Of a DNA stretch of 64,000 bases, positions 23,171-26,023 are shown one piece after another (position 1 is the first letter of the stretch; every line of letters begins with the position of its first letter). The stretch is from a virus. The stretch is from the IMG/VR virus record IMGVR_UViG_3300046692_000072, positions 13,722 through 77,721 of that record; one strand, given 5' to 3'. The notes under the pieces are model-generated. The model was given only the letters and a program-made list of their open reading frames with translations, had not been told where the DNA came from and ran no database searches. The translations under genes were made by a program, and so were the position numbers.

Positions 23171-23199
23171 TTGACACGATCTGATTAGTCAGACAGGAT
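23171..23199 (+). promoter_or_regulatory. Host sigma70-type promoter for the tRNA/ncRNA island
   Basis: TTGACA-17 nt-CAGGAT immediately upstream of the RNA cluster. Confidence 0.55.
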
Positions 23200-23258
23200 T
23201 AAGCCATTCAATGTGGTGTCCTTCTTTAATTGAACCAGTAGGGAAACTTACTGGTTCT

Positions 23259-23392
23259 TCTTTGTGAGCGATGCGTAAAACGGAGCAATGATAGAGCGGG
23301 AAGATGACTGTCCAGAGTTTACTGGTGTGTACCGCCTTAGCAGTCCGAGTCATAGCCTCTGGTAGGTGGTTAGTATCCACCCCTCACAAAGA
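23259..23392 (+). ncRNA. Candidate tRNA-like structured RNA (no CCA)
   Basis: Terminal stem TCTTTGTGAG/CTCACAAAGA; T-arm-like GGTGG-TTAGTAT-CCACC next to the 3' strand; inner ATGACT/AGTCAT. Confidence 0.45.
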
Positions 23393-23460
23393 CATACTGT
23401 CGCTCAGTCGCGGGGCAGGGAAGATGAGCTGATATCTTGCGTATCAGTTACTGGGACTCA

Positions 23461-23537
23461 CGGTGTGTAGCGCAGTCTGGTAGCGCATCTGGTTTGGGAC
23501 CAGAGGGTCGCAAGTTCGAATCTTGCCACACCGACCA
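23461..23537 (+). tRNA. tRNA-Pro(TGG)
   Basis: Cloverleaf CGGTGTG/CACACCG, TCTGG-TTTGGGA-CCAGA, GTTCGAAT, encoded CCA. Confidence 0.97.
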
Positions 23538-23642
23538 TCTTATCTAATAAACCAGGGATCTGATAATTGCCCTGGTCCTATGGTGCATGGTACCCTGACG
23601 GCACCCTACCGGAAACGGCTTGCGGTTAATGGGTTCAAGTGT

Positions 23643-23718
23643 TGGGGAGTAGCTCAGTTGGTAGAGTGGGAGACTGTTAATCTCCTCGTCGTTGGTTCGA
23701 GTCCAACCTCCCCAGCCA
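23643..23718 (+). tRNA. tRNA-Asn(GTT)
   Basis: TGGGGAG/CTCCCCA, GGAGA-CTGTTAA-TCTCC, GTTCGAGT, CCA. Confidence 0.96.
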
Positions 23719-23738
23719 ATCATTTACAGGATGTTGAC

Positions 23739-23945
23739 ATGACAGACGATCAGATCCATCACATGGTCAATCGCTTCCTTCAATGGCGATTGCCTCATAC
23801 GTTCAACCCCGATGGAGGCATCAGCTTCAAGCGGGAGTTCAATGAACACACTGCCCACCCTATGGTGCATGAACCCTTAGGTACTAACCTGCTGGATGCA
23901 ACACAGGCTGAAGAGATGATTCGATTCATCACTGAAGATCTTTAA
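23739..23945 (+). CDS. Hypothetical phage protein (MTDDQIHHMVNRFLQWRLP…)
   Basis: ATG at 23739 after AGGA; 68 aa; the longer ORF-track version wrongly extends through tRNA-Asn. Confidence 0.7.
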   Translation: MTDDQIHHMVNRFLQWRLPHTFNPDGGISFKREFNEHTAHPMVHEPLGTNLLDATQAEEMIRFITEDL

Positions 23946-24129
23946 GACTCAGGCTAGCGGAACGGGACTAATCATTTATGGTTACCCTCAGAGCCAATCA
24001 CGGATAACACCGCCATAGTCCGTGGGGTTTGCTTTCCTACCTAAGAAGTGTCGATGACTGCCGACAAAAGGAAAGCACAGTCTGGAACCAAAGGGAGTGA
24101 GACCAATCTATCTCCTGCCTTTGCTTTCA

Positions 24130-24203
24130 TGGGGAATAGCCAAGCGGTACGGCAGGAGTTTTTGGTACTCCCACCCCTGGTTCGAATCCAGGTTCCCCAA
24201 CCA
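24130..24203 (+). tRNA. tRNA-Gln(TTG)
   Basis: TGGGGAA/TTCCCCA, GGAGT-TTTTGGT-ACTCC, GTTCGAAT, CCA. Confidence 0.95.
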
Positions 24204-24226
24204 GTTTGCAGATCCCGCAAGGGATA

Positions 24227-24340
24227 GGACGTGTAGCCCAAGCACAACGCAAGAGGCAGGGACCATGTGCCCGTCAGTGTGAGTAGGGGAAGGGGAGATA
24301 CCCGGGTATCAGATCCAACCGAGTCTCACCATGTCCACCA
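24227..24340 (+). ncRNA. tRNA-derived RNA with intact acceptor stem and CCA, degenerate anticodon arm and ~35-nt insertion in the T-loop
   Basis: GGACGTG/CATGTCC-A-CCA; TAGCCCAA…AGGCA D-arm; CAGT-GTGAG-T[insert]CGAGT-CTCAC. Confidence 0.7.
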
Positions 24341-24654
24341 ATTAAAGTTTCTCCATAGTATTCTCACGAGTCTGTGGATAGAGAGCAAGGTCCATAATCT
24401 CCACCCTTGCAAACCTAGGAAAGATGGAATAGCCTAGGTGTATTAATTCTAATTGAACCAACTGCGAGGGGAGTTATGCCTTTCGCCCCGACAGAGTGGT
24501 TGGTTCTTTCTTGGGTCCAGCGGGTATGAGCTTCGCTCCGGTTTTATTTATGAGTGTCCTTCCTTTGCCACCTCATAAGGTTTTCCCGTCGCCTCTCCGC
24601 CCCACGCAATCAGATAGCTAGTGCTGGAAAAGCTTCTGATGATCTTCACGAACC

Positions 24655-24768
24655 AAAAAGAACTGTAGGTAATCCTCTGAGAAGCTGTGTTAATGGGTGG
24701 CGTCCCCAACAGCTACTGACGCTGAGGAATTAGAGTGGGTCAGTTCCACTTGCCTTACAGTTCTTTTT
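24655..24768 (+). ncRNA. Candidate structured RNA
   Basis: AAAAAGAACTGTA-GGTAA pairs with TTGCC-T-TACAGTTCTTTTT; inner TCCTC/GAGGA, AGCTGT/ACAGCT, AGTGG-7nt-CCACT. Confidence 0.45.
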
Positions 24769-24815
24769 CGGGCTAATACGCCTTTGCAAATCCCAAAAAC
24801 CTATAGGAAAATTTT

Positions 24816-25007
24816 ATGATCAAGAAGAACATCTTTCTCGCAGCAGCAGGTCTCTTTGTTGTTGCAGGTCTTGCATCGTGTGGTACGGTTGCCGTATCGT
24901 CTGAGCGTCCGCGTAGCGTGACCAACGACCACGAGCAGAACCAGATCAATGAACGCATCGAGAAGAACAAGGCAGAGCGTGCTGAGCGTGCTGCCAAGGG
25001 CTTCTAA
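24816..25007 (+). CDS. Small lipoprotein
   Basis: MIKK + hydrophobic stretch + LASC lipobox; AGGA SD. Confidence 0.75.
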   Translation: MIKKNIFLAAAGLFVVAGLASCGTVAVSSERPRSVTNDHEQNQINERIEKNKAERAERAAKGF

Positions 25008-25183
25008 CTAATTCGGTAGGATTGTCTTTAACTAGGCATCTGCACCCCTACCGGGTACTGGCAATATGGGGGATCTTTTGTTTCGTTCGGTGATTCGCAC
25101 TTACCCAATGTAAACCAGATCCCCCTGAGTCCCTTCCTATTAGACAGCTTCATCCCAAATAGATGAGGCGCTTTAATTGGAAT

Positions 25184-25331
25184 AGATGTGATTATCGAGA
25201 GGCAGGATACGCTTGTGTATTGTATTGGTAGGTTCGAAACTATTAATGCATGTGCAAGTACCTTATCTTCACTAGGGTCTAGAACCTAGGCAGGTAGGGC
25301 TAAGCAAACCTGTCTCGCTGTAATCACATCT
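25184..25331 (+). ncRNA. Candidate multibranch structured RNA
   Basis: AGATGTGATTA/TAATCACATCT, CGAGA..CAGG/CCTGTCTCG, long G-U-rich hairpin capped by GTTCGAAA. Confidence 0.5.
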
Positions 25332-25488
25332 TAATGTAATCCTACGATGCATCTCTCTGGTATGAGATCTACGTCATAGACCTAGATCAAACGATGACAG
25401 GTCAGTTCGGGGATTTGGCTGGGTACACTTACATGCCCCGGAGCATCCCGTATAGGCACAGCGCCCATCTGTATAACTGGGTATCTAT

Positions 25489-25627
25489 GACAGGATCCTA
25501 ACAGCTAGTAGTACTGAATGCTGGAAGACGGGTTCATGGAGCCAAGGGGGATAATGCACAGGGGACTTGCAATAACCTGTGGGGATAATACCCTTGGTGG
25601 AGGTTCGATTCCTCCTCCTGTCGCTCA
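25489..25627 (+). ncRNA. tRNA-like RNA with canonical T-arm and extended central arm
   Basis: GGAGG-TTCGATT-CCTCC followed by TCCTGTC, complementary to GACAGGA at 25489; CCAAGGG/CCCTTGG and CACAGG/CCTGTG stems. Confidence 0.55.
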
Positions 25628-26023
25628 CCTAATTGCATACGAATACGACTTGTGCCGTGCTACAGCCCTCAGGGTGATTGTAGATTTAGAAACCCCATCC
25701 ACCCACTTGGCTCTGTATAGTGTAAAAGCCCATGGCGACAGGTGGTCGAGCAGTAACGTAGGATTCATCCTGCCTTACACCTTGGAGCACACCGAGGTAA
25801 GCTTATGGGTCAGATCGGGATGGTCCAGTGTACAGCCCGCTGCCACCTTCCCCTTAAGCAGGAACAGGCTTGAAGCTGTTTCGGGTTCAACTGATTGTCG
25901 AACGAATCAGTAAGGGAGGGTAGTCCACTTCCTTCTCAAGAAGGTTGCTGTAACCGCAGGATAGGGGGAGATCTAGCGTACCGGTCGCGAAGCTCCCCCG
26001 ATACTAATCAAATGGAACCAAGG

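Follow-up and report, generated by a model that had tools for sequence, protein, structure and literature searches.

Odd stable RNAs among the tRNA genes of phages have been known for fifty years, the classical cases being RNAC (species 1, 139 nucleotides (nt)) and RNAD (species 2, 119 nt) of phage T4. A related theme is found in YrlA (RF02553), a Ro60-bound non-decoding RNA known from bacteria and some phages, in which the tRNA elbow (T arm and D arm) is imitated. The function of RNAC and RNAD is still called unknown (PMC9697503), alphaproteobacterial small RNAs (sRNAs) of the ar14/NfeR1 type expose CU-rich loops of the CCUCC type on hairpins with variable stems (PMC7143759), and a 2023 survey of viral contigs lists 10,006 candidate viral RNAs, many of them unnamed tRNA-like candidates (PMC10690425). 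The present analysis concerns positions 23171-26005 of a 64-kb window (the whole stretch of DNA that was analysed), which is part of an IMG/VR virus record of 77.7 kb that shows assembly terminal repeats. This stretch is a plus-strand RNA island in which three tRNAs are accompanied by eight or more folded modules whose pairing is under selection, some of them tRNA-derived and some exchangeable. It was singled out by a first-pass annotation that proposed three real tRNAs interleaved with six structured modules (23259-23392, 24227-24340, 24655-24768, 25184-25331, 25489-25627 and 25740-25848), seen either as a cassette of tRNA mimics or as one large RNA.

From its sequence, the source of the window is an N4-like rhizobiophage of the Schitoviridae, Demetervirinae-like. 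In GenBank it is closest to seven Rhizobium phages that are likewise N4-like and belong to the subfamily Demetervirinae of the Schitoviridae (RHph_N38, RHph_I1_6, RHph_Y38, RHEph22, RHEph24, RHEph16 and RHph_Y2_6), which are 71-81% identical over parts of the stretch and all seven of which have a sparsely annotated gap at the position of the island. Together with the window they make up the eight genomes, in about four lineages, on which the fixed domains were compared. Scans of viral and metagenome contigs for further close relatives, based on the neighbouring Gp49-like protein and on invariant RNA motifs, returned distant loci or none, and two Logan contigs encode neighbour proteins at 60-68% identity (P0002, P0005). 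The late genes, including terminase, occupy positions up to 22586 and run leftward, small early-type genes run rightward from 22850, and the island sits between these two arms. By synteny with N4 (PMC4496689), the left physical end of the genome, and with it the DNA injected first, would be expected at this junction. The stretch is best described as a rightward non-coding RNA region that opens the early gene arm, with its three tRNAs and two kinds of folded RNA.

The case for the island rests on covariation and not on folding energy, the comparative evidence being much the stronger. Compensatory changes among Schitoviridae relatives, on which the first-pass annotation had staked its proposal, are found beyond shuffled and slid controls for the block 24346-24790 and for 25694-25809, beyond slid controls for 23259-23392, and, in a family that extends to other phages, beyond shuffled controls for a unit at 24211-24345 called cassette A. 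Aligned in the eight genomes, block 24346-24790 folds into 15 helices with 97.0% of cells paired, and 17 pairs are changed on both sides, against 7.8 ± 1.6 in shuffled controls (0/500) and 1-3 in slid ones. No conserved reading frame is found in this 447-nt block, where stop-free runs on the plus strand reach at most 65 codons in any genome, and its insertions and deletions (indels) are mostly not multiples of three. Most of the block is taken up by a conserved plus-strand multi-helix domain (24346-24650; 11 helices), present in all seven relatives and marked by CU-rich loops, by the second terminator-like hairpin of the GAACCA type (24455-24508) and by a long-range helix that joins UGGG..GCGGG to UCCGCCCCA and shows a switch from G-C to A-U. 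It is followed on the same strand by 24655-24768. A 14-base-pair (bp) stem closes this module, one of its arms is variable, and a hairpin whose loop GUCAGUU is conserved adjoins the 3′ strand. Covariation in the seven relatives extends to the closing stem, an inner stem and the hairpin, the last changing from GUGG/CCAC to GCAG/CUGC under an invariant loop.

The block also tells the strands apart. It contains 75 G-U cells and therefore fits the plus strand (97.0%) better than the minus strand (88.8%), so that the claim that G-U pairs point to selection at the RNA level holds. These figures bear on an alternative in which the stretch would carry DNA-level signals, i.e. extruded hairpins of the kind that serve the virion RNA polymerase of N4 as promoters, an origin, or packaging or terminal repeats at the left end. 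The location between the late and early arms suits such signals, as do an invariant 55-nt element at 22757-22812 and a small covarying hairpin, GAGC-UUC-GCUC at 24529, which we take to resemble the N4 promoter core. However, conserved G-U pairs become A-C mismatches on the opposite strand, the most stable module (C2, see below) is far more stable on the plus strand, a search for N4-type promoter hairpins with 3-nt loops found no recurring motif, and promoter hairpins would not be expected to form multi-helix junctions or long-range helices. DNA-level signals are thus an improbable explanation of the island.

Two further domains are fixed in all relatives and, with 24346-24650, are not tRNA-shaped as far as their predicted folds go. 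The first is a plus-strand three-way-junction RNA at 25694-25809, in which, beside P1 (CCCAU/AUGGG), P2 (CCACC/GGUGG) bears a hairpin and P3 two. It occurs once in each of the eight genomes (covariance model R1), is 98.2% paired and has 11 of 38 pairs changed on both sides, against 5.7 ± 1.6 in shuffled and 0-3 in slid controls. This structure overlaps the proposed module 25740-25848, the closing stem of which is not conserved. The observation as such holds, but the boundaries of this module were misplaced, the true conserved structure being 25694-25809. The second domain (25068-25125, plus strand) is a nearly invariant hairpin formed by GGGGGAUCU and AGAUCCCCC around an inner hairpin GGUG-AUUCG-CACC (z -2.5 to -4.9, folding z-scores of modules being measured against dinucleotide shuffles), with pairing kept through changes on both sides. 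Two of the proposed modules, 24655-24768 and 23259-23392, would be built more loosely on a plan of closing stem plus T-type arm. In 23259-23392 (plus strand), a 5-bp hairpin with a T-like 7-nt loop lies against the 3′ strand of a 9-bp closing stem. Both elements are kept in RHph_N38, where comparison of these two sequences only gives 100% pairing and seven pairs changed on both sides, with none in slid controls.

The three tRNAs themselves are genuine, as claimed, by ARAGORN and by Rfam (56-70 bits). They are tRNA-Pro(UGG) at 23461-23537 (69.9 bits), tRNA-Asn(GUU) at 23643-23718 (66.7 bits) and tRNA-Gln(UUG) at 24130-24203 (55.9 bits), all on the plus strand with an encoded CCA, and the first is 90-92% identical to Rhizobiaceae tRNA-Pro. 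When at least 29 bits with the tRNA covariance model (RF00005), or a call by ARAGORN at default settings, is taken as the threshold for a tRNA, none of the six modules passes and the three tRNAs do. Relaxed ARAGORN settings yield only low-score calls, at 24686-24758 and 25545-25624. No transfer-messenger RNA (tmRNA), standard or permuted, is found by ARAGORN, no paralogous repeats among the modules inside the island are found by blastn, and no Rfam match other than tRNA is found over 22800-26400 even at E = 10, with YrlA, tmRNA, GOLLD and ROOL among the families covered. As a side observation on annotation, RHEph24 (MW980072.1) has no annotated tRNAs in GenBank, although ARAGORN finds tRNA-Pro and tRNA-Gln placed as in RHEph22.

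Cassette A (24211-24345, plus strand) is an anticodon-less RNA that, from its shape, is derived from a tRNA. A small hairpin (24213-24224) precedes a 7-bp acceptor stem (24227-24233 with 24330-24336), followed by A-CCA at 24337-24340. The interior comprises U8-A9, an invariant D-like region, a D-like stem with an enlarged loop, a short hairpin of 3-4 bp with a loop of 5-8 nt that is different in each member, and a T stem of 5 bp that carries, instead of the T loop, a variable hairpin insert of about 45 nt. Cassette A is the only module with a 7-bp acceptor stem, discriminator and CCA (GGACGUG/CAUGUCC + A + CCA), and these covary in its homologs. A 7-nt anticodon loop on a 5-bp stem is present neither in cassette A nor in the second look-alike, C3 (see below), and neither default ARAGORN nor Rfam at E ≤ 10 detects cassette A. 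Through the 5′ part and D region, its covariance model aligns to the relatives' tRNA-Pro gene together with short flanking stretches (27 bits; E-values of the models built for this analysis are rough). A homolog at 70.7 bits lies between tRNA genes on an unrelated 121-kb viral contig, with the acceptor stem fully changed to GUCCGGG/CCUGGAC and ACCA still following. Another, found by blast and likewise with a covaried acceptor stem and ACCA, lies in an unannotated region without any tRNA in Ochrobactrum phage ZX86. About 2.2 kb around the start of the ZX86 record (PV394112.1, 74801-76112 and 106-1040) have no annotated genes and may be another unannotated RNA island. No homologs of cassettes A or B were found in two large Rhizobiaceae replicons, which is a weak test. 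Across the five members of the family, 94.7% of cells pair and 12 pairs are changed on both sides, against 4.1 ± 1.5 in shuffled controls. The scaffold is nearly invariant, whereas in the adjoining tRNA-Gln the window and RHph_Y2_6 share only 76% identity, which points to either strong constraint on cassette A or its recent exchange.

Among close relatives, three segments behave as indel cassettes: 24211-24345, 25182-25337 and 25482-25649. Contigs of related phages from two other rhizosphere metagenomes join 24210 directly to 24346 (run X3) and 25181 directly to 25338 (run X4), and these exact joins make modules 24227-24340 and 25184-25331 clean presence/absence units. The slot between tRNA-Gln and the conserved block holds cassette A in the window, RHEph16 and RHph_Y2_6, is occupied by a different cassette (cassette B) in RHph_N38, RHph_I1_6, RHEph22 and RHEph24, and is empty in RHph_Y38 and in the relative from run X3. 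Cassette B, which is absent from the window, is a 'double T-arm' RNA, in which two hairpins with canonical UUCGAUU loops flank an invariant stretch resembling a class-II D arm (UCGyUgrCCGAGGyUUGGUArGA), followed by AUGACA and a CCGGGAAAGACCGG hairpin. It covaries among its four carriers in the relatives. A model and motif scan places it at 12-53 bits in about 24 other IMG/VR contigs (loci L009 and L027-L051, besides L001:3795-3964, L002:3845-4025 and L004:3525-3700), some copies being located beside tRNA genes. ARAGORN calls only one of the copies a tRNA, and Rfam, YrlA included, gives no match for the one copy searched.

The independent gains and losses of modules bear on the idea of a single large, ornate RNA across the island, comparable to GOLLD or ROOL; one large RNA had been the second option of the first-pass annotation. 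Such RNAs lie beside tRNAs in phages, and the 15 helices of block 24346-24790 would be in keeping with them. Against this, no Rfam match appears even at E = 10, and the modules have open reading frames (ORFs) and tRNAs between them and are gained and lost independently, so that a single large RNA is very improbable.

The two other cassettes have no relatives. Cassette C2 (25182-25337, plus strand) is a very stable three-way hairpin at 25184-25331 with an indel polymorphism. Its folding reaches z -7.5 (-64.4 kcal/mol) on the plus strand against z -3.5 (-40.4 kcal/mol) on the minus strand, a bias that speaks for an RNA rather than a DNA palindrome. No homologs of C2 are found in phages, plasmids (blast) or genomes. 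A host-derived mobile palindrome, of the type of miniature inverted-repeat transposable elements (MITE) or Rhizobium-specific intergenic mosaic elements (RIME), was considered for C2 and rejected, because its terminal inverted repeats, looked for in 185,579 species genomes, turned up 15 times in unrelated taxa, a number close to chance, and not at all in Rhizobiaceae. Cassette C3 (25489-25627, plus strand), likewise a tRNA-derived look-alike by its predicted fold, has a 7-bp closing stem (GACAGGA/UCCUGUC), a symmetric arm of 56 nt and no CCA, and a canonical T arm (GGAGG-UUCGAUU-CCUCC) lies against the 3′ strand of the closing stem. It matches tRNA-Sec weakly (18 bits, Rfam), and no homologs of it were found. 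The stretch that holds it, 25482-25649, is absent from all seven GenBank relatives and is seen only in this phage. Cassette A, with its A-CCA end, and C3 would thus share an acceptor-like closing stem with a T-type arm on the 3′ side.

A simple account of such look-alikes would be decay, i.e. tRNA pseudogenes left by the turnover of the cluster together with neutral spacer. Phage tRNA clusters do gain and lose genes, with tRNA-Asn limited to two of the eight genomes and located elsewhere in RHph_I1_6, and C3, without CCA and without relatives, fits this account. However, stems are kept by two-sided changes while loops vary, the scaffold of cassette A is far better kept than the neighbouring functional tRNA-Gln, and homologs exist in unrelated phages. 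Decay is largely refuted for all modules but C3 and C2 and is improbable for the island; for 25184-25331 and 25489-25627, decay and recent acquisition cannot be told apart.

More serious is the question whether the structures act in cis. In this explanation, the main rival, the stretch would be a leader or spacer whose attenuators or terminators, RNase sites and stabilising end-structures control read-through out of the tRNA units into the early ORFs and shield the mRNAs of the latter, with no RNA acting in trans. A terminator-like hairpin, GAACCAG...CTGGTTC followed by TTCTTT, stands at 23232-23259 (plus strand) and is identical in RHph_N38. Three copies of the motif GAACCA...TGGTTCTT, each with a tail rich in T, lie on the plus strand of the window (23232, 24455 and 35653), where 0.05 are expected, and these hairpins are probably phage-specific terminators or attenuators. 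Terminator-like hairpins with T-runs are present at 23232, 24455 and 24519 and after 24768, and TTGGTTC at 24497 can pair alternatively with an upstream or a downstream GAACCAA. Block 24346-24790 abuts the ribosome-binding site of the ORF at 24816, and the hairpin at 25964-25999 abuts that of the ORF at 26024. Moreover, tRNA-like structures are RNase P sites in polycistronic mRNAs. On the other hand, cassette A occurs in ZX86 and in the 121-kb phage within quite different gene contexts, cassettes can be missing while the downstream genes stay, and the encoded ACCA end and invariant internal loops of cassette A suggest a free RNA bound by protein. A purely cis-acting leader is possible, though less likely.

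At the 5′ end the first-pass annotation placed a sigma70-like promoter, which is not supported: TTGACA at 23172 is conserved, yet no acceptable -10 follows it and a promoter scan does not list it. Upstream, between the late and early arms, the 55-nt element at 22757-22812, invariant in all seven relatives, consists of an AT-rich palindrome followed by GGAAGCGGAGGAGC and leads into ATG (relatives) or ATA (window). It may be a promoter, an origin or a terminus signal and is a better candidate for a control site than the sequence at 23172.

The structures are thus present on the plus strand, purifying selection acts on their pairing and cassettes are exchanged among phages. What the modules do is best accounted for if they are transcribed along with the tRNAs, freed by terminators and by the enzymes of tRNA processing, and work as stable RNAs that do not decode, a reading to which we give roughly even odds (about 0.5). 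After this joint transcription, host RNase P would cut at the 5′ side of the acceptor-like stems, 3′ trimming would stop at the encoded CCA, and terminator-like hairpins would also yield stable small RNAs. The look-alikes, unable to decode, would most likely occupy proteins of the host or the phage that recognise tRNAs by the acceptor/T-arm end, and the CU-rich loops of the domains that are not tRNA-like could pair with ribosome-binding sites. The proposed cassette of tRNA mimics is in this respect half right: the island is co-oriented and contains true look-alikes (24227-24340 and 25489-25627), but 24346-24650 and 25694-25809 are not tRNA-shaped.

Several observations weigh against stable RNAs acting in trans. 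The expectation that the modules fold better than shuffled sequence is borne out for three of the six (24655-24768, z -4.2; 25184-25331, z -7.5; 25489-25627, z -2.5) and fails for the three others (23259-23392, z -1.0; 24227-24340, z -0.6; 25740-25848, z -1.7) as well as for the island as a whole, which in a sliding scan folds no better than the flanking coding DNA. Support for the larger domains comes from the eight genomes in about four lineages only, and that for C2 and C3, which are without homologs, only from energy and shape. The conserved T-run hairpins and the alternative TTGGTTC/GAACCAA pairing suit a cis-regulatory leader equally well, and no recurrent protein partner common to all loci is found near the cassette B elements. 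A look-up of RNA sequencing runs likewise gave none that contains the phage.

A more specific version of the stable-RNA reading would make the cassettes an interchangeable toolkit of tRNA-end mimics, CCA-ended or T-armed, that titrate a host tRNA-targeting immune nuclease, toxin or modifying enzyme. The slot after tRNA-Gln and other sites would then take cassettes from families common to unrelated phages, and these would be expressed from the DNA that enters first. Such a decoy role is attractive because of the CCA end, the T arms, the hypervariable loops, the turnover of cassettes and their place where the early arm starts; in this full form it nevertheless seems unlikely.

The remaining features of the region are smaller. 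As claimed, only two credible small ORFs occur within 23171-26005, both on the plus strand and neither with an informative match to a known protein family. The first (23739-23945, 68 amino acids) is replaced by 96 other bases in the near relative from run X3. The second (24816-25007, 63 amino acids), hypothetical in the relatives, has an N-terminus resembling a signal peptide with a lipobox (LASC) and is lipoprotein-like. An 85-nt plus-strand block at 25397-25481 has neither a stable fold (z +0.8) nor an ORF, and its 95% identity in RHph_N38 and RHph_I1_6 far exceeds the local average of about 75%. The conserved plus-strand hairpin at 25964-25999 (GGGGGAG...CUCCCCC, variable loop) lies just before the ribosome-binding site of ORF 26024-26299. 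Just upstream of the stretch, a self-contained sRNA-like unit (22657-22750, plus strand; z -5.4) consists of a 14-bp closing stem, two hairpins and a U-rich tail, and its closing stem shows two compensatory changes (six relatives). The 12-mer GGAACCAAGGAT occurs twice in the window, inside this unit (22668-22679) and at 26012-26023, where it forms the ribosome-binding site and start of ORF 26024-26299. Further strong local folds are located within the small early gene block, at about 29060-29179 (z -6.6) and 28850-28969 (z -4.1).

At least two cassette families extend into unrelated phages, and the case is tractable, given cultured relatives (RHph_N38, RHEph16, RHph_Y2_6 and Ochrobactrum phage ZX86) and natural variants with and without each cassette. 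If the look-alikes serve as decoys or regulators, host takeover or counter-defence by phages would gain an RNA layer; if they are only processing signals, they would still account for something that recurs in phage tRNA clusters. Candidates for Rfam are cassette A, cassette B, 25694-25809 and 24346-24790.

How the island relates to described RNAs can be stated family by family. With the ar14 sRNAs it shares CU-rich loops in 22657-22750 and 24346-24650. The ar14 model (RF02344) scores 21.6 bits at 22668-22753 against a gathering score of 58.8, and ar14 requires three hairpins with CCUCCUCCC loops, whereas 22657-22750 has two such anti-Shine-Dalgarno-like loops (UCCUCCC), in this phage only, the relatives having a UGCCCCC loop. 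The YrlA model gives no match at its gathering score or at E ≤ 10. YrlA has a permuted order, whereas in cassette A and C3 the parts follow one another as in a normal tRNA and the free ends lie at the acceptor stem, and the Ro60/TROVE domain (PF05731) is absent from the 77.7-kb phage record in a search that matched the control genomes. Canonical tRNAs resemble cassette A in acceptor stem, U8-A9, D-like and T stems, discriminator A and CCA, and C3 in the T arm; they differ in having a 7-nt anticodon loop and, from cassette A, in keeping the T loop that the hairpin insert replaces.

The closest known analogues would be RNAC and RNAD of T4. The label of an undescribed system is apt in so far as no module matches an Rfam family, as had been predicted, and too strong in that T4 has long been known for two stable RNAs in its tRNA cluster (PMC9697503). 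Cassettes A and B were tried as rnaC/rnaD homologs and rejected, since on the T4 cluster models R2 and R3 hit nothing beyond the T arm or the true tRNAs. The T4 RNAs are stable late RNAs, whereas the modules of the island, known from their sequence, head the early arm by position only, and the island has many more modules, some not tRNA-like. The likeness lies in the arrangement, non-decoding small RNAs lying among the tRNA genes of a phage and sharing their strand, and in architecture: T4 rnaC (z -4.6) has a closing stem, long extra arms and a canonical T arm (CCGGG-UUCGAAU-CCCGG) at the 3′ strand, which is the plan of 25489-25627.

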